Below, in pieces: positions 1 to 6,589 of a stretch of DNA of 6,589 nt. Each line of letters starts with the position of its first letter. The stretch's first letter is position 1. The translations under genes and the position numbers were made by a program. Source of the DNA: a virus (taxonomy: Duplodnaviria; Heunggongvirae; Uroviricota; Caudoviricetes); IMG/VR virus record IMGVR_UViG_2563366849_000001; one strand, 5' to 3'. Under the pieces are notes generated by a model. The model saw nothing but the letters and a program-made list of their open reading frames with translations. It was not told the origin of the DNA and made no database searches.

Positions 1-198
1 GTTTTTTACTACGAGCGCGCCGTGTGTGCGATGGCGACCGCGTCGCTTTATGAGCGTTACCGCGGCGTGGATGCCAGTGCGAAAGGCGACAAGAAGGCCG
101 ACAGCATTGACAGCACCATTGATGAACTGTGGCGGGATATGCGCTGGGCGGTGGCGCGTATCCAGGACAAGCCGCGCTGCATCGTGAGTCAAATCTGA
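1..198 (+). CDS. L: 3' end of head completion/stabilisation protein gpL (5' part lies upstream of the window)
   Basis: Frame 1 is open from the window edge to TGA at 196-198 (…DELWRDMRWAVARIQDKPRCIVSQI*). The stop overlaps the ATG of the next gene (TGATG). Position immediately upstream of X matches P2 order L-X-Y. Identity is by synteny rather than a recognised motif. Confidence 0.6.
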   Translation, partial: VFYYERAVCAMATASLYERYRGVDASAKGDKKADSIDSTIDELWRDMRWAVARIQDKPRCIVSQI

Positions 199-401
199 TG
201 AAGACCTTTGCGCTACAGGGCGACACGCTCGACGCCATTTGTGTCCGGTATTACGGGCGCACTGAGGGCGTGGTCGAGACTGTGCTCGCCGCAAATCCGG
301 GACTGGCTGAACTGGGTGCGGTGCTGCCGCACGGCACCGCCGTCGAACTGCCCGACGTTCAGACCGCGCCCGTGGCTGAAACTGTCAATCTGTGGGAGTA
401 A
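198..401 (+). CDS. X: Tail protein gpX, small LysM-like protein (67 aa)
   Basis: ATG at 198 overlaps the upstream stop; 67 aa (MKTFALQGDTLDAICVRYYGRTEGVVETVLAANPGLAELG…NLWE), the size and sequence type of P2 gpX with a LysM-like 'DTLDAIC…YYG' signature. The ORF-track start at 129 is an in-frame upstream extension that overlaps L and is unlikely to be used. Confidence 0.85.
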   Translation: MKTFALQGDTLDAICVRYYGRTEGVVETVLAANPGLAELGAVLPHGTAVELPDVQTAPVAETVNLWE

Positions 402-404
402 CGC

Positions 405-689
405 ATGACAGCAGAAGAAAAAAGCGTCCTGTCGCTTTTCGTGATTGGGGTGCTGATTGTTGTCGGCAAGGTGCTTGCCGGTGGTGAACCCATCACCCCG
501 CGTCTGTTTATCGGGCGCATGTTGCTCGGTGGTTTTGTCTCGATGGTTGCCGGTGTTGTTCTGGTGCAGTTTCCTGACCTGTCACTGCCTGCGGTGTGCG
601 GCATCGGCTCCATGCTGGGTATCGCCGGTTATCAGGTGATTGAGATTGCCATTCAGCGCCGCTTTAAGGGCAGGGGGAAGCGGAATTAA
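405..689 (+). CDS. Y: Holin gpY (class I, three predicted transmembrane segments, basic C-terminus)
   Basis: GGGAG Shine-Dalgarno at 394-398, ATG at 405. 94 aa with three hydrophobic stretches (SVLSLFVIGVLIVVGKVLAGG / LFIGRMLLGGFVSMVAGVVLV / LPAVCGIGSMLGIAGYQVI) and a charged tail QRRFKGRGKRN. Follows X as in P2. The last few codons may be altered by the adjacent deletion junction. Confidence 0.8.
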   Translation: MTAEEKSVLSLFVIGVLIVVGKVLAGGEPITPRLFIGRMLLGGFVSMVAGVVLVQFPDLSLPAVCGIGSMLGIAGYQVIEIAIQRRFKGRGKRN

Positions 690-951
690 AACGGCCAGCG
701 TGACGGCTTCTGATTCTGTTACTGCCACGGTGCCGGTGGTCATGGTGAAAGCATCAACCCGCGTCACCCTGGACACACCGGAGGTGGTCTGCACCAACAG
801 GCTGATTACCGGCACGCTGGAAGTGCAGAAGGGCGGGACGATGCGCGGCAACATTGAACACACCGGCGGTGAACTCTCATCAAACGGGAAGGTACTGCAT
901 ACCCATAAACACCCCGGCGACAGCGGCGGCACAACCGGGGGACCTCTATGA
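679..951 (+). pseudogene. V: 3' fragment of baseplate spike gene V (about the C-terminal 90 codons; N-terminal domain deleted)
   Basis: Frame open from 640 but no plausible start or RBS of its own; its 5' part overlaps the Y 3' end. Translation …VPVVMVKASTRVTLDTPEVVCTNRLITGTLEVQKGGTMRGNIEHTGGELSSNGKVLHTHKHPGDSGGTTGGPL* resembles the C-terminal beta-helix tip of P2-type gpV spikes, including the His-x-His cluster. The TGA at 949-951 overlaps the W start (ATGA), as in an intact V-W junction. The full-length gene in P2 is roughly 210 codons. Confidence 0.7.
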
Positions 952-1295
952 CAGCGCGTTATCTCGGAATGAATCGCAGTGATGGCCTGACTGTCACTGA
1001 CCTTGAGCATATCAGCCAGAGTATCGGCGATATCCTGCGCACGCCGGTCGGCTCACGGGTGATGCGTCGTGATTACGGCTCGTTGCTGGCGTCAATGATT
1101 GACCAGCCGCAGACCCCGGCGCTTGAGTTGCAGATTAAGGTCGCCTGTTACATGGCGGTGCTGAAATGGGAACCCCGCGTCACCCTGTCATCTGTCACCA
1201 CGGCGCGCAGTTTTGACGGGCGAATGACGGTCACGTTAACCGGCCAGCACAACGACACCGGCCAGCCACTTTCGTTAACCATCCCTGTGAGTTGA
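948..1295 (+). CDS. W: Baseplate assembly protein gpW (gp25/GPW family, 115 aa)
   Basis: ATG at 948 coupled to the V stop; 115 aa (MTARYLGMNRSDGLTVTDLEHISQSIGDILRTPVGSRVMRRDYGS…) typical of the GPW/gp25 baseplate wedge family and the P2 gpW size. The stop at 1293-1295 lies 4 nt before the J start. Confidence 0.9.
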   Translation: MTARYLGMNRSDGLTVTDLEHISQSIGDILRTPVGSRVMRRDYGSLLASMIDQPQTPALELQIKVACYMAVLKWEPRVTLSSVTTARSFDGRMTVTLTGQHNDTGQPLSLTIPVS

Positions 1296-1299
1296 AACT

Positions 1300-1473
1300 A
1301 TGCCGATTATCGACCTGAACCAGCTACCCGCACCGGATGTGGTCGAGGAGCTGGACTTTGAAACCATTCTTGCCGAACGCAAGGCGACACTGATTTCCCT
1401 TTATCTGGGAGCTTTACGCCGCAACCGGTGTGGATGCCGTACCGATTCGTTTTGCAGGCTCTTACCAGCGTGA
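1300..1473 (+). pseudogene. J: Truncated baseplate gene J: about 35 native N-terminal codons, then out-of-frame read-through into FII sequence ending at TGA 1471-1473
   Basis: ATG at 1300 follows W as in P2. Translation MPIIDLNQLPAPDVVEELDFETILAERKATLISLY matches the gpJ N-terminus; from about 1405 the frame continues as LGALRRNRCGCRTDSFCRLLPA*, which is FII DNA read in the wrong frame. The intact gene in P2 is about 300 codons. Confidence 0.75.
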
Positions 1474-1708
1474 CGATACCGGCGAAACGGTGGCCGTCGA
1501 GGTGGTCATGCGTGGACGTCAGAAAGAAATCGACACCGGCGAGGGTAAACAGGGAGAAGACACCGAGTCGAAAATCTCCGTGGTCTGCACTTATTTCCGG
1601 CTGACGATGGACGGTAAGGAGCTGGTCGAAATTGACACCATCAACATGATTGAGAAGGTGAACGGCGTCGACCGGCTGGAGCAACACCGCCGCAATATCG
1701 GCCTGTGA
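1403..1708 (+). pseudogene. FII: 3' fragment of tail tube gene FII (about the C-terminal 100 codons, no native start)
   Basis: In the frame ending at TAA/TGA 1706-1708 the translation is IWELYAATGVDAVPIRFAGSYQRDDTGETVAVEVVMRGRQKEIDTGEGKQGEDTESKISVVCTYFRLTMDGKELVEIDTINMIEKVNGVDRLEQHRRNIGL*, which I recognise as the C-terminal part of P2-type tail tube protein FII (about 172 aa when intact). An in-frame stop at 1391-1393 lies just upstream; the ORF-track 'start' at 1430 is a GTG inside the gene. Located immediately upstream of E as in P2. Confidence 0.75.
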
Positions 1709-1715
1709 TTTTCAT

Positions 1716-1736
1716 CCGGTCAGCCTGGCTGACCGG
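1716..1736 (+). repeat. Perfect inverted repeat (CCGGTCAGCC-T-GGCTGACCGG) in the FII-E intergenic region; potential RNA stem-loop
   Basis: Read directly from the sequence: 10-nt arms that are exact reverse complements, 8 nt after the FII stop and about 28 nt before the E start. It is not followed by a U-run, so it is unlikely to be a classical intrinsic terminator; possibly an RNA stability or processing element. Confidence 0.45.
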
Positions 1737-1764
1737 TTAACCCTGATTCATAAGTGAGAAAACC

Positions 1765-2040
1765 ATGAACAAAGAAAATGTCATTACCCTGGACAATCCG
1801 GTCAAACGTGGTGAGCAGGTTATCGAACAGGTCACGCTGATGAAACCCAGTGCCGGGACGCTGCGCGGTGTCAGTCTGGCAGCGGTCGCGAACTCCGAAG
1901 TCGATGCACTGATTAAGGTGCTGCCGCGCATGACGGCACCGATGCTGACCGAGCAGGAAGTCGCCGCGCTGGAACTGCCTGACCTTGTGGCGCTGGCCGG
2001 TAAGGTGGTCGGTTTTTTGTCGCCGAACTCGGTGCAGTAA
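1765..2040 (+). CDS. E: Tail assembly chaperone gpE (91 aa)
   Basis: ATG at 1765, 91 aa ending TAA 2038-2040; contains the T TTT TTG slippery heptamer near its 3' end. Position between FII and T and the size match P2 gpE. Confidence 0.85.
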   Translation: MNKENVITLDNPVKRGEQVIEQVTLMKPSAGTLRGVSLAAVANSEVDALIKVLPRMTAPMLTEQEVAALELPDLVALAGKVVGFLSPNSVQ

Positions 2041-2192
2041 CGTTCCCGAAAAATCTGTCGGTCGATGACCTGATGGCGGATGTGGCAGTGATATTTCACT
2101 GGCCGCCATCAGAACTGTATCCCATGAGCCTGACCGAACTCATCACATGGCGCGAAAAGGCGCTCCGGCGAAGCGGAAACACGAATGAGTAA
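1765..2192 (+). CDS. E+E': gpE+E' tail assembly chaperone made by programmed -1 ribosomal frameshift (142 aa predicted)
   Basis: Slippery heptamer T-TTT-TTG at 2013-2019 in the E frame. The -1 frame is open from there (FFVAELGAVTFPKNLSVDDLMADVAVIFHWPPSELYPMSLTELITWREKALRRSGNTNE*) to TAA at 2190-2192, which overlaps the T start at 2185. 85 E codons plus 57 E' codons gives 142 aa. Same architecture as the known P2 E/E' and lambda G/GT chaperone pairs. Confidence 0.75.
2013..2019 (+). promoter_or_regulatory. -1 programmed frameshift slippery site (T TTT TTG)
   Basis: X-XXY-YYZ heptamer in the E reading frame (GGT TTT TTG), with a 57-codon open -1 frame downstream that ends exactly at the T start region. 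Confidence 0.7.
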
Positions 2193-4632
2193 CAATGTAA
2201 AATTACAGGTATTGCTCAGGGCTGTTGACCAGGCATCCCGCCCGTTTAAATCCATCCGTACAGCGAGCAAATCGCTGTCGGGGGATATCCGGGAAACACA
2301 AAAATCACTGCGCGAGCTGAACGGTCACGCATCCCGTATTGAGGGATTCCGCAAGACCAGTGCACAGCTCGCCGTGACTGGTCATGCACTTGAAAAGGCA
2401 CGGCAGGAAGCCAAAGCCCTTGCCACACAGTTTAAAAACACCGAACGTCCGACCCGTGCTCAGGCGAAAGTGCTGGAATCAGCAAAGCGAGCGGCGGAAG
2501 ACTTACAGGCGAAATATAACCGCCTGACGGATTCCGTTAAACGCCAGCAGCGGGAACTGGCCGCTGTGGGAATTAATACCCGCAATCTTGCACATGATGA
2601 GCAGGGGCTGAAAAACCGTATCAGTGAAACCACCGCACAGCTTAACCGTCAGCGCGACGCACTGGCGCGTGTCAGTGCACAACAGGCAAAACTTAACGCA
2701 GTCAAACAGCGTTATCAGGCCGGAAAAGAACTGGCAGGAAATATGGCCTCAGTGGGCGCTGCCGGTGTGGGGATTGCTGCTGCGGGAACGATGGCCGGAG
2801 TTAAGCTGCTGATGCCCGGTTATGAGTTTGCGCAGAAAAACTCAGAATTGCAGGCTGTGCTCGGTGTGGCAAAAGACTCCGCCGAAATGGCTGCACTACG
2901 CAAGCAGGCGCGCCAGCTCGGTGACAATACCGCCGCCTCAGCGGATGATGCGGCCGGTGCGCAGATTATCATTGCGAAAGCGGGTGGAGATGTTGATGCC
3001 ATTCAGGCGGCAACGCCGGTCACGCTGAACATGGCGCTGGCGAACCGTCGCACGATGGAAGAAAACGCCGCCCTGCTGATGGGGATGAAATCTGCCTTTC
3101 AGCTTTCAAACGATAAGGTCGCTCATATCGGGGATGTTCTCTCCATGACGATGAACAAAACCGCCGCCGATTTTGACGGTATGAGCGATGCGCTGACCTA
3201 TGCCGCACCTGTGGCAAAAAATGCCGGTGTCAGCATTGAAGAAACCGCCGCAATGGTCGGGGCGCTGCATGATGCAAAAATCACCGGTTCAATGGCGGGG
3301 ACGGGAAGCCGTGCCGTGTTAAGCCGCCTGCAGGCACCGACGGGAAAAGCATGGGATGCACTCAAAGAGCTTGGAGTGAAAACCTCAGACAGCAAGGGAA
3401 ACACCCGGACAATATTTACCATTCTGAAAGAAATGCAGGCCAGTTTTGAGAAAAACCGGCTCGGTACTGCCCAGCAGGCTGAATACATGAAAACTATTTT
3501 CGGGGAGGAGGCCAGCTCAGCCGCCGCCGTGCTGATGACTGCCGCCTCAAGCGGAAAGCTGGACAAACTGACCGCTGCGTTTAAAGCCTCAGACGGGAAG
3601 ACCGCCGAGCTGGTAAATATCATGCAGGACAACCTCGGCGGCGACTTTAAGGAGTTTCAGTCCGCTTATGAGGCGGTGGGGACTGACCTGTTTGACCAGC
3701 AGGAAGGCGCACTGCGTAAGCTCACTCAGACGGCCACAAAGTATGTGTTAAAACTCGACGGCTGGATCCAGAAAAACAAATCACTGGCGTCAACCATCGG
3801 CATCATTGCCGGTGGCGCGCTGGCGCTTATTGGCATCATCGGTGCAATTGGTCTTGTAGCCTGGCCGGTTATCACCGGCATCAATGCCATCATCGCGGCA
3901 GCAGGCGCAATGGGTGCAATCTTCACGACGGTTGGTAGTGCCGTTATGACGGCCATCGGGGCGATTAGCTGGCCGGTTGTGGCCGTGGTGGCTGCAATTG
4001 TCGCCGGGGCGTTGCTTATCCGTAAATACTGGGAGCCTGTCAGCGCATTCTTTGGCGGTGTGGTGGAAGGGCTGAAAGCGGCATTTGCGCCGGTGGGGGA
4101 ACTGTTCACGCCACTTAAACCGGTGTTTGACTGGCTGGGTGAAAAGTTACAGGCCGCGTGGCAATGGTTTAAAAACCTGATTGCCCCGGTCAAAGCCACC
4201 CAGGACACCCTGAACCGTTGCCGTGACACGGGCGTCATGTTCGGGCAGGCACTGGCTGACGCGCTGATGCTGCCGCTTAATGCGTTCAACAAACTGCGCA
4301 GTGGTATTGACTGGGTACTGGAAAAACTCGGTGTCATCAACAAAGAGTCAGACACACTTGACCAGACCGCCGCAAGGACTAATGCCGCCACGTATGGCAC
4401 CGGTGGTTATATTCCGGCGACCAGCTCTTATGCAGGCTATCAGGCTTATCAGCCGGTCACGGCACCGGCTGGCCGCTCTTATGTGGACCAGAGTAAAAAC
4501 GAATATCACATCAGCCTGACCGGTGGTACTGCGCCGGGGACACAGCTCGACCGCCAGTTACAGGATGCGCTCGAAAAATACGAGCGGGATAAACGTGCGC
4601 GCGCCCGTGCCAGCATGATGCATGACGGTTAA
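2185..4632 (+). CDS. T: Tail tape measure protein gpT (815 aa)
   Basis: 815-aa ORF directly after E/E'. The N-terminal third is Ala/Gln/Arg/Lys-rich and predicted coiled-coil; the central part is alpha-helical and Ala-rich; a long Gly/Ala/Ile-rich hydrophobic segment lies at about nt 3778-4030 (IGIIAGGALALIGIIGAIGLVAWPVITGINAIIAAAGAMGAIF…); C-terminal globular part. Size and architecture are typical of a myovirus tape measure and equal P2 gpT length. Confidence 0.9.
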   Translation: MSNNVKLQVLLRAVDQASRPFKSIRTASKSLSGDIRETQKSLRELNGHASRIEGFRKTSAQLAVTGHALEKARQEAKALATQFKNTERPTRAQAKVLESAKRAAEDLQAKYNRLTDSVKRQQRELAAVGINTRNLAHDEQGLKNRISETTAQLNRQRDALARVSAQQAKLNAVKQRYQAGKELAGNMASVGAAGVGIAAAGTMAGVKLLMPGYEFAQKNSELQAVLGVAKDSAEMAALRKQARQLGDNTAASADDAAGAQIIIAKAGGDVDAIQAATPVTLNMALANRRTMEENAALLMGMKSAFQLSNDKVAHIGDVLSMTMNKTAADFDGMSDALTYAAPVAKNAGVSIEETAAMVGALHDAKITGSMAGTGSRAVLSRLQAPTGKAWDALKELGVKTSDSKGNTRTIFTILKEMQASFEKNRLGTAQQAEYMKTIFGEEASSAAAVLMTAASSGKLDKLTAAFKASDGKTAELVNIMQDNLGGDFKEFQSAYEAVGTDLFDQQEGALRKLTQTATKYVLKLDGWIQKNKSLASTIGIIAGGALALIGIIGAIGLVAWPVITGINAIIAAAGAMGAIFTTVGSAVMTAIGAISWPVVAVVAAIVAGALLIRKYWEPVSAFFGGVVEGLKAAFAPVGELFTPLKPVFDWLGEKLQAAWQWFKNLIAPVKATQDTLNRCRDTGVMFGQALADALMLPLNAFNKLRSGIDWVLEKLGVINKESDTLDQTAARTNAATYGTGGYIPATSSYAGYQAYQPVTAPAGRSYVDQSKNEYHISLTGGTAPGTQLDRQLQDALEKYERDKRARARASMMHDG

Positions 4633-4646
4633 GGAGGTGACGAAAA

Positions 4647-5126
4647 ATGATGCTCGCGTTAGGTATGTTTGTTTTTATGCGCCAGACGCTGCCACACCAG
4701 ACCATGCAGCGTGAATCAGATTATCGCTGGCCGTCAAATTCCCGTATCGGTAAACGGGACGCCTACCAGTTTCTCGGTGTGGGTGAGGAAAACATCACGC
4801 TTGCCGGTGTGCTTTATCCAGAACTGACCGGCGGCAAGCTGACGATGACCACGCTCAGGCTGATGGCCGAGGAAGGCCGGGCGTGGCCGTTGCTGGATGG
4901 CACCGGCATGATTTACGGCATGTATGTCATCAGCAGGGTGAGTGAAACAGGGAGTATTTTCTTTGCAGACGGCACACCCCGAAAAATTGATTTTACGCTG
5001 TCGCTCACCCGCGTTGATGAATCACTGGCCGCGCTTTATGGCGATATCGGTAAACAGGCGGAATCGCTCATCGGTAAGGCCGGCAGTATGGCGACCAGAT
5101 TCACGGGTATGACGGGGGCGGGATAA
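4647..5126 (+). CDS. U: Tail protein gpU (tail terminator/tail formation protein, 159 aa)
   Basis: Strong SD AGGAGGT at 4632-4638, ATG at 4647; 159 aa; the stop TAA at 5124-5126 overlaps the D start (TAATG). Position and size match P2 gpU. Confidence 0.85.
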   Translation: MMLALGMFVFMRQTLPHQTMQRESDYRWPSNSRIGKRDAYQFLGVGEENITLAGVLYPELTGGKLTMTTLRLMAEEGRAWPLLDGTGMIYGMYVISRVSETGSIFFADGTPRKIDFTLSLTRVDESLAALYGDIGKQAESLIGKAGSMATRFTGMTGAG

Positions 5127-6289
5127 TGCTGGATGCACTGACATTTGATGCAGGCAGTACGCTGACGCCGGATTACATGCTGATGCTCGACAGCAGGGAT
5201 ATTACCGGCAATATCAGCGACCGTCTGATGAGCATGACCCTGACGGATAACCGGGGCTTTGAGGCTGACCAGCTTGATATTGAACTGAACGATGCCGACG
5301 GGCAGGTCGGGCTGCCGGTTCGTGGCGCTGTCCTGACGGTGTATATCGGCTGGAAAGGTTTTGCCCTGGTATGCAAAGGGAAATTCACCGTTGATGAGGT
5401 TGAACACCGGGGCGCGCCGGATGTGGTTACCATCCGCGCCCGGAGTGCAGATTTTCGCGGGACGCTCAATTCCCGCCGTGAAGGCTCATGGCATGACACC
5501 ACGCTCGGTGCGATTGTTGAGGCGATAGCCTCCCGTAACAGGCTGGAAGCCAGTGTCGCGCCGTCACTGGCCGGAATTAAAATCCCGCACATCGACCAGT
5601 CGCAGGAGTCTGATGCGAAATTCCTGACCCGTCTTGCAGAACGCAACGGCGGTGAGGTGTCGGTAAAAATGGGAAAACTGTTGTTTCTCAAAGCGGGGCA
5701 GGGAGTGACGGCCAGCGGTAAAAAAATCCCGCAGGTCACCATAACCCGCAGCGACGGCGACCGCCATCATTTTGCGATTGCTGACCGTGGAGCCTACACC
5801 GGTGTAACGGCAAAATGGCTACACACCAAAGACCCGAAGCCTCAAAAGCAGAAGGTAAAACTGAAACGCAAAAAGAAAGAGAAACACCTGCGCGCACTGG
5901 AGCACCCGAAAGCGAAACCGGTCAGGCAGAAGAAAGCGCCTAAAGTACCGGAAGCGCGTGAAGGTGAATACATGGCCGGTGAGGCTGACAACGTTTTTGC
6001 CCTGACCACGGTATATGCCACGAAAGCGCAGGCCATGCGCGCCGCTCAGGCGAAGTGGGATAAGCTGCAACGGGGCGTTGCGGAGTTCTCCATCAGTCTG
6101 GCTACCGGTCGTGCTGATATTTACACGGAAACACCGGTTAAAGTGTCAGGCTTTAAGCGCGTCATAGACGAGCAGGACTGGACAATCACTAAGGTGACAC
6201 ATTTTCTGAATAATAGCGGCTTCACGACGTCCTTGGAGCTTGAGGTCAGGCTTTCTGATGTGGAGTACGAAACAGAAGATGATGAGTGA
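5126..6289 (+). CDS. D: Tail protein gpD (phage late control gene D family, 387 aa)
   Basis: ATG at 5126 translationally coupled to U; 387 aa, the P2 gpD size; last gene of the F-E-T-U-D tail operon, directly upstream of ogr. Contains an unusually lysine-rich segment, residues about 233-280 (KDPKPQKQKVKLKRKKKEKHLRALEHPKAKPVRQKKAPKVPEAREGE). Confidence 0.9.
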   Translation: MLDALTFDAGSTLTPDYMLMLDSRDITGNISDRLMSMTLTDNRGFEADQLDIELNDADGQVGLPVRGAVLTVYIGWKGFALVCKGKFTVDEVEHRGAPDVVTIRARSADFRGTLNSRREGSWHDTTLGAIVEAIASRNRLEASVAPSLAGIKIPHIDQSQESDAKFLTRLAERNGGEVSVKMGKLLFLKAGQGVTASGKKIPQVTITRSDGDRHHFAIADRGAYTGVTAKWLHTKDPKPQKQKVKLKRKKKEKHLRALEHPKAKPVRQKKAPKVPEAREGEYMAGEADNVFALTTVYATKAQAMRAAQAKWDKLQRGVAEFSISLATGRADIYTETPVKVSGFKRVIDEQDWTITKVTHFLNNSGFTTSLELEVRLSDVEYETEDDE

Positions 6290-6307
6290 TGCTTTTATTT
6301 TATCTGT

Positions 6308-6336
6308 TTGTTTTATAAGGATAAATTAACTAAAAT
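6308..6336 (+). promoter_or_regulatory. Candidate sigma70 promoter for ogr (TTGTTT - 17 nt - TAAAAT)
   Basis: -35-like TTGTTT at 6308-6313 and -10-like TAAAAT at 6331-6336 with a 17-nt spacer, in the AT-rich gap between the D stop (6289) and the ogr start (6371). Sequence-pattern prediction only. Confidence 0.4.
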
Positions 6337-6370
6337 GGCACTATCAACAAAACCGGAAGAGGTGCTCGCG

Positions 6371-6589
6371 ATGTTTCATTGTCCTTTATGCCAGCATGCC
6401 GCACATGCGCGTACAAGTCGCTATATCACTGACACGACAAAAGAGCGTTATCACCAGTGCCAGAACGTGAATTGCAGCGCCACGTTCATCACTTATGAGT
6501 CGGTACAGCGATACATCGTGAAGCCGGGAGAAGTCCACGCCGTAAGGCCGCACCCGTTGCCGTCAGGGCAGCAAATTATGTGGATGTAA
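6371..6589 (+). CDS. ogr: Ogr, Cys4 zinc-finger activator of P2 late promoters (72 aa, complete)
   Basis: ATG at 6371 with GAAGAGG RBS about 8 nt upstream; 72 aa MFHCPLCQHAAHARTSRYITDTTKERYHQCQNVNCSATFITYESVQRYIVKPGEVHAVRPHPLPSGQQIMWM*, matching as far as I can recall the P2 Ogr / E. coli OgrK sequence with the C-x2-C-x22-C-x4-C zinc-binding motif (Cys4, 7, 30, 35). The stop TAA is the last three bases of the window. The ORF-track start at 6308 adds a 21-aa extension that I consider spurious. Confidence 0.9.
   Translation: MFHCPLCQHAAHARTSRYITDTTKERYHQCQNVNCSATFITYESVQRYIVKPGEVHAVRPHPLPSGQQIMWM

Follow-up and report, generated by a model that had tools for sequence, protein, structure and literature searches.

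A P2-like holin gene beside a deletion in a defective Escherichia coli prophage: native gene Y, most likely a silent passenger

Gene content of the window

The window analysed here is the whole of a 6,589-nucleotide stretch of viral DNA (IMG/VR record IMGVR_UViG_2563366849_000001; Caudoviricetes), whose features are collected in Table 1. It begins at the first base of its source contig, inside the head completion gene L, and ends with the stop codon of ogr. On the basis of sequence comparison, positions 405-689 are assigned to the native holin gene Y of a P2-like (Peduovirus) prophage from one Escherichia coli lineage. As read from the sequence and the ORF list, Y is a 94-aa ORF that starts with the ATG at 405. 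Its GGGAG ribosome-binding site lies 6 nt 5' of the ATG, with the X stop codon (399-401) falling between the two, and this position is the native P2 arrangement.

Its match to the Pfam family PF04550 (Phage_holin_3_2) is complete, spanning profile positions 1-86 of 86 with E 2.3e-42 and 143.7 bits, where the cut-off is 25. The protein also matches PHROG 175, annotated 'holin' (E 1.3e-46), and falls in a 90%-identity cluster of 581 sequences named 'phage holin family protein'. At the protein level it is about 98% identical to a characterised holin, differing from P2 gpY by M13V, Q93R and one additional residue, N94. In a Kyte-Doolittle profile with a 15-residue window, hydropathy peaks near residues 7-27, 34-56 and 59-83, and the stretch after the third peak is basic (QRRFKGRGKRN); the protein thus has the three hydrophobic segments and basic C-terminal tail of a class I holin. 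The preliminary description of this DNA had read a three-transmembrane-segment holin ORF with a good ribosome-binding site at this place and had proposed a topology prediction as a check; the Pfam and PHROG matches, the GGGAG site and the hydropathy profile all agree with that reading.

Compared with P2 gpY (AAD03275.1), the window protein aligns natively over 92 of 93 residues and its DNA region is 97.9% identical, with the same ribosome-binding site, the same place after X, three hydrophobic segments and a basic C-terminal tail. The two differ at the end of the gene, where the window has Arg-Asn, encoded by V DNA, in place of Q93 of P2 (a residue that is P in most prophage alleles of E. coli), and in what comes after it, since K, lysA, lysB and lysC follow Y in P2 and are absent after Y in the window. 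No endolysin gene adjoins the holin gene as it would in a lysis cassette, because K, lysA, lysB and lysC have been deleted. This missing context is a secondary loss in a descendant whose ancestry is unambiguous. Y should be annotated as a holin with an altered last residue.

Three other stretches of the window are parts of genes. V' has neither a start nor a promoter of its own; its frame is open back to a TTG at 640, which lies inside the end of Y in another frame, and it retains complete spike-trimer and apex domains. The junction ORF that joins J' to FII' has no match in Pfam, and a possible ORF of FII' begins at a GTG at 1430. The slip site of E/E+E' is TTTTTTG at 2013-2019. An antisense ORF of 142 aa (582-1010, minus strand) overlaps the end of Y and V' and is treated as spurious, with no match in Pfam or PHROG. 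Both public assemblies annotate part of it (582-932) as a gene of 116 aa, a call that probably arose because V' lacks a start codon. V', J' and FII' should be annotated as gene fragments, the antisense call at 582-932 is probably not a gene, and for the region as a whole the fitting annotation is that of a defective P2-like prophage carrying two internal deletions. A Pfam search finds no muralytic domain in any ORF of the window, including the tape-measure gene T, and an Rfam scan of the window finds no known RNA families.

Table 1. Genes, fragments, P2-collinear blocks and deletion junctions in the window
Feature	Position	Strand	Evidence or correspondence
Block 1: L', X, Y	1-679		P2 6312-6990; 97.9% identical
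L 3' end (head completion)	1-198	+	PF05926 Phage_GPL, profile 75-139/139, E 6e-23; = P2 6312-6509
X (tail protein X), intact, 67 aa	198-401	+	PF05489, E 4e-32; length as in P2 and DETEC-S792
Ribosome-binding site of Y, GGGAG	394-398	+	Sequence reading
Y, class I holin, 94 aa	405-689	+	PF04550, PHROG 175, hydropathy, allele alignments
Deletion junction 1: Y codon 92 joined to V codon ~120	675-679		BLAST maps, three-way alignments
Block 2: V', W, J'	675-1411		P2 10667-11403; 97.2% identical
V' fragment, C-terminal ~91 codons, baseplate spike	680-951	+	PF18715 Phage_spike, E 6.5e-30; PF18946 Apex; = P2 10667-10943
W (gp25-like baseplate wedge), intact, 115 aa	948-1295	+	PF04965, E 2e-14; P2 length
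J' fragment, first ~35 codons of J, out of frame into FII	1300-1473	+	57-aa junction ORF; P2 map
Block 3: FII', E, E', T, U, D, ogr	1401-6589		P2 19066-24254; 97.3% identical
Deletion junction 2: J codon ~35 joined to FII codon ~71	1401-1403		BLAST maps, three-way alignments
FII' fragment, C-terminal ~100 codons, tail tube	1404-1708	+	PF04985 Phage_tube, profile 76-165/165, E 2e-34
E and E+E' tail assembly chaperone	1765-2192	+	PF10109; PF06528 for E'; P2 annotation
T (tape measure), intact, 815 aa	2185-4632	+	PF10145, E 9e-45
U, intact, 159 aa	4647-5126	+	PF06995, E 3e-44
D, intact, 387 aa	5126-6289	+	PF05954, E 5e-27
ogr, zinc-finger activator of P2 late promoters, intact, 72 aa	6371-6589	+	PF04606, E 2e-21; P2 annotation

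The two deletions

A BLAST comparison with P2 (AF063097) resolves the window into three collinear, ungapped blocks separated by two deletions, whose breakpoints were set by three-way alignments of the window, P2 and the closest intact prophage, that of DETEC-S792. Measured against P2, deletion 1 spans 3,681 bp, and against the DETEC-S792 prophage 3,577 bp; its junction has a perfect AA microhomology (678-679) with an imperfect form GGnAA. It removes the last codons of Y, the endolysin gene K, the antiholin gene lysA, the Rz/Rz1-type spanin genes lysB and lysC, and R and S, which the P2 annotation gives as tail-completion genes. Lost with them are the O-operon attenuator/terminator, orf30, the activator site and the start point of P_V, and ~120 codons from the beginning of V. 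Deletion 2 spans 7,673 bp of P2 and corresponds to 6,592 bp in DETEC-S792, and its junction shows a perfect TTA within an imperfect 11-nt match. It removes the 3' part of J, I, H, G, the V-operon terminator, Z/fun, P_F, FI and ~70 codons from the 5' part of FII. The essential functions lost in this way comprise K, R, S, the 5' part of V, the 3' part of J, I, H, G, FI and the 5' part of FII, all of which are essential in the P2 record; the cargo genes are not.

Both joins bring together unrelated genes at 2-3 nt of identity, which is the signature of illegitimate recombination and not of assembler collapse at repeats. The earlier reading that Y adjoins a deletion and has lost its endolysin partner together with lysA and lysB is borne out, with lysC gone as well. 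The deletion is, however, larger than had been described, as it spans 3,681 bp and includes R, S, orf30, P_V and the 5' part of V. The earlier listing of LysA among the spanins needs correction, since the spanins are LysB and LysC and LysA is a putative antiholin. In P2, Y acts as holin, K as endolysin, LysA as antiholin and LysB/LysC as the equivalents of Rz/Rz1 (PMC3091744), and the notes of the P2 record give the same roles to the lysis genes, with K essential for lysis.

The product of gene Y

Junction 1 falls within codon 92 of Y, which still encodes K. Alignments to P2 Y and to natural alleles show residues 1-92 to be native, while V DNA, read in a frame other than that of V, supplies codons 93-94 (Arg, Asn) and the TAA stop. 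The junction at the 3' end of Y that the preliminary description reported is thus real, with its breakpoint within codon 92, and the comparison with the P2 Y C-terminus that it proposed gives a divided answer: the protein is native up to residue 92, after which Arg-Asn stands in place of the last residue.

Whether this replacement matters can be judged from natural variation. The terminal residue of Y varies among phages and prophages, being Q in P2 and P in most E. coli prophages, and positions 90-91 vary among the cluster members as G/E and R/S/W, respectively. V13 is a common natural allele, present in the variant P0004 on 29 contigs, which matches the window protein except for its last residue, P. 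The PF04550 model stops at residue 86 and is fully matched by Y. In phage lambda, the charge of the cytoplasmic C-terminus of the holin S tunes triggering time. Junction 1 adds one positive charge to a tail that already carries six, and by analogy with S this extra charge could shift the timing of triggering, with abolished function unlikely.

The intact appearance of Y could be misleading if the loss of P/Q93 and gain of Arg-Asn, or the V13 allele, had abolished hole formation and made the gene an intact-looking pseudogene. A junction that falls inside the coding sequence and adds charge to an already charged tail, together with the behaviour of lambda S, would be compatible with such a loss. 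Against it stand three native hydrophobic segments within a native residue 1-92 portion, the spread of V13 over 29 contigs, the different last residues of functional phages and the tolerance of positions 90-91, and the complete match to a Pfam model that ends at residue 86. An inactivated holin is accordingly considered unlikely, as is the earlier suggestion that the junction disabled Y, given that only a naturally variable last residue is replaced. The predicted product, residues 1-92 followed by Arg-Asn, is probably still a competent hole-forming holin.

Genomic location and distribution

In a large assembly collection of ~15 billion proteins, the exact 94-aa Y protein occurs on only two contigs. 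The first is KE137287.1 (GCA_000408785.1), the first 6,589 bases of which are identical to the window, and the second is scaffold KB733421.1 (GCA_000351965.1) of E. coli KTE156. The J'::FII' junction ORF forms a singleton cluster containing the same two accessions and is identical in both assemblies. Downstream of ogr in KE137287.1 lie the ogr terminator, an attachment-site remnant (attR) and the host genes pflB, focA and ycaO. P2 gene order, high identity and the position of ogr next to attR together identify the locus as a defective Peduovirus prophage. Positions 6590-6910 of this contig hold the terminator hairpin of the ogr/F operon (AAAGCCCCTC...GAGGGGCTTTTTT), the attachment-site remnant and the 3' end of pflB; the window ends ~320 bp short of host pflB.

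The closest intact relative is the prophage of DETEC-S792 (NZ_CP116067.1, 1-27.5 kb). It occupies the same integration site, with ogr followed by pflB-focA-ycaO, and is 98.8%, 99.2% and 99.7% identical to the window's three segments with no indels. It differs in being complete and carries 10.2 kb that the window lacks, namely K, lysA, lysB, lysC, R, S, a cargo ORF, the 5' part of V, the 3' part of J, I, H, G, a second cargo ORF, FI and the 5' part of FII.

Among 5,426 complete E. coli genomes, no place covers at least 80% of window positions 1-1411, the matches being full prophages in separate pieces, and none gives a full-length, single-piece match to the whole window. Exact scans for junction 1 return zero matches in representative genomes (185,579 species), metagenomes and viral contigs, and those for junction 2 return zero in the same 185,579-species set of representative genomes. 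The deletion structure is a private, non-recurrent event of one lineage, represented by KTE156 and the window's own assembly.

The two junction-bearing assemblies differ at seven positions in T-U-D, and at four of these (2268, 2271, 5326 and 5386) KTE156 has the DETEC-S792 allele; they therefore come from distinct isolates, or reflect a consensus drawn from more than one P2-like copy. The KTE156 scaffold also contains a third illegitimate junction (L002 12340-12400), which joins T codon 7 (window 2206) to the spacer after M (L004 10287) at a 2-nt AC microhomology. Together with overlapping contig pieces, this junction closes a 2,615-nt cycle, L-X-Y-V'-W-J'::FII'-E-T5'. In a short-read draft, such a cycle is an assembly-graph signature that suggests tandem duplication or amplification of the Y-carrying unit. 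A tandem duplication may also explain why the window contig starts inside L and why the KTE156 scaffold has large N gaps.

The same irregularities raise the question of whether short-read mis-joins among several P2-like prophages produced the junctions, the true chromosome holding an intact Y-K cassette. The sequence comes in both cases from a draft assembly, the first base of the window is a contig end inside L, and the KTE156 scaffold shows three runs of N, a 565-nt overlap between contigs left unmerged and the odd third junction. Both junctions are nevertheless present in two separate assemblies that differ by scattered SNPs, and the junction ORFs are identical in the two. Moreover, the joins connect non-homologous genes at 2-3 nt, whereas assembler mis-joins need repeats of k-mer length. 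An assembly artefact is on this evidence very unlikely.

Expression and proposed origin

A consensus scan of positions 1-404 on the plus strand finds no sigma-70-like promoter before Y, the counts being at chance level. A terminator-like match inside Y (508-532) was set aside as native P2 sequence that does not exceed expectation. By the P2 annotation, Y belongs to the P_O operon, and the late operons of P2 depend on Ogr acting at TGT-N12-ACA promoters (PMC3931495). P_V, P_F and the terminators of the O and V operons lie within the deleted segments (P2 features 8399-10308 and 15639-17628), and the genes from L to D therefore form a fused, terminator-free unit that can be driven only by P_O. 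The presence of P_O itself is assumed, because its place is upstream of the window and, in the KTE156 scaffold, within an N gap. Read-through of the fused late unit would also reach ogr.

The origin proposed for the locus starts with two independent, illegitimate, microhomology-mediated deletions that would have gutted the late region of a prophage beside pflB. The first would have taken K, lysA, lysB and lysC along with R, S, orf30 and P_V, and the second the baseplate, fibre and sheath genes and P_F. Y would have survived because the left breakpoint of deletion 1 fell two codons before its stop, and a stop codon three codons into the V sequence would then have closed its frame. Transcription of Y would come only from the Ogr-dependent P_O, together with everything down to D, and would be off in the resting prophage. 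The trigger may be the element's own Ogr, or the Ogr or delta protein of a superinfecting P2-like phage or P4-type satellite. Once activated, Y would be expected to accumulate, trigger, collapse the membrane potential and kill the cell. The envelope would not be lysed unless another prophage or the infecting phage supplied an endolysin and spanins. Triggering would come somewhat earlier, because the antiholin LysA has been lost.

Endolysin-defective phages such as lambda R- and P2 K amber mutants set a precedent, in that their holin stops respiration and kills the cell without lysis. The same outcome is predicted for Y of the window if it is switched on. The difference is that those phages are laboratory point mutants that are otherwise complete, whereas the window is a natural multi-gene deletion that leaves tails unbuildable. 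To judge from P2 biology, Y is most likely a silent, Ogr-dependent passenger. The broader reading, in which Y is carried along in a young, decaying prophage, is silent at rest and has not been domesticated, is held with good confidence.

Passenger or domesticated gene

The preliminary description took an intact holin gene next to a deletion as the kind of signal seen at domesticated prophage loci. Its description of Y as an orphan holds in so far as the holin is left without K and the spanins; the domestication reading attached to it is not supported. The event is confined to two contigs, Y and K are otherwise inherited together, the neighbouring genes are equally intact and no promoter was found before Y in the consensus scan.

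Co-inheritance was counted over the complete E. coli genomes, a genome being scored when a place in it covers 80% or more of the query. The Y query finds 1,485 genomes, the K query 1,479 and the contiguous Y+K query 1,482. Y and K are thus inherited together almost without exception, with at most a few genomes carrying Y without K, and the orphan condition of Y is therefore not a recurrent, selected state. The other surviving complete genes (X, W, E, T, U, D and ogr; 5.1 kb) are uninterrupted and have the lengths found in P2 and DETEC-S792. With sheath, tube, baseplate and fibres gone, the products of W, E, T, U and D serve no purpose. As these useless neighbours are equally intact, the integrity of the 285-nt Y carries no information about selection; the remnant is too young for point decay and an intact Y is the expected outcome. 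The hot spots for cargo, defence and moron genes, orf30 and Z/fun, have been lost and not kept.

A domesticated remnant would be conserved across host lineages, would keep a gene while its neighbours decay and would show the orphan state recurrently. Here the remnant is found on two contigs and in 0 of 5,426 complete genomes, with zero junction matches in the scans; none of X, W, E, T, U, D and ogr is shortened or carries an indel relative to its intact counterparts; and the counts for Y, K and Y+K nearly coincide. A literature search for 'orphan holin' found no papers.

It might still be argued that orphan Y is kept for the benefit of the host, either as a suicide or premature-lysis device, triggered by Ogr or delta, against P2-like phages and P4-type satellites, or as a gate for the release of protein or vesicles. 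The Y ORF, its ribosome-binding site and the gene for its cognate activator, ogr, are intact, the surviving late genes form one terminator-free unit behind P_O, and the Y-carrying unit is possibly tandemly duplicated in KTE156. Holins of different phages, moreover, act without specificity for the endolysin. Yet the locus is private to two assemblies and absent from all other collections searched, orphan Y does not recur among the ~1,490 complete genomes that bear Y, and tail genes that can serve no purpose are preserved just as well. The consensus scan for an independent promoter was negative, and the region's hot spots for defence and moron genes, orf30 and Z/fun, are gone. Co-option is accordingly judged highly improbable.

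Other phage-type holins are known to work outside a complete phage, as in the release of toxin by TcdE of Clostridioides difficile and in the 'type 10' secretion of Serratia and Salmonella by a holin-endopeptidase pair. Those loci are conserved across lineages, linked to cargo, mostly accompanied by a muralytic partner and under host-type regulation, none of which is seen for Y of the window.

A more specific form of the defensive idea supposes that the 2.6-kb L-X-Y-V'-W-J'::FII'-E unit is tandemly amplified in KTE156 and its relative. Y, freed of antiholin and endolysin and wired to the Ogr/delta-responsive P_O, would act as a decoy timer: on infection by a P2-like phage or P4-type satellite that brings in the late activator, the additional, unregulated Y would trigger early and abort the burst. 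If true, this would be a defence built from a decayed prophage, but the proposal is extremely unlikely. A duplication of the Y unit, if real, could reflect selection on dosage rather than neutral decay.

Under the favoured passenger reading, nothing at the orphan-Y locus departs from known biology. An intact ORF beside a deletion says nothing about selection while the whole remnant is young, and the locus would be of interest only if Y were expressed or amplified, with an effect on phage infection. What the locus illustrates cleanly is the way in which orphan lysis genes arise through microhomology deletions at an early stage of prophage decay. In other complete E. coli genomes (NZ_LR134296.1, NZ_CP122938.1 and NZ_CM128561.1) there are P2-like remnants whose deletions end at different points, including a J-to-sheath deletion and a K fragment beside a portal gene, and independent internal deletions seem to be common in this prophage family.
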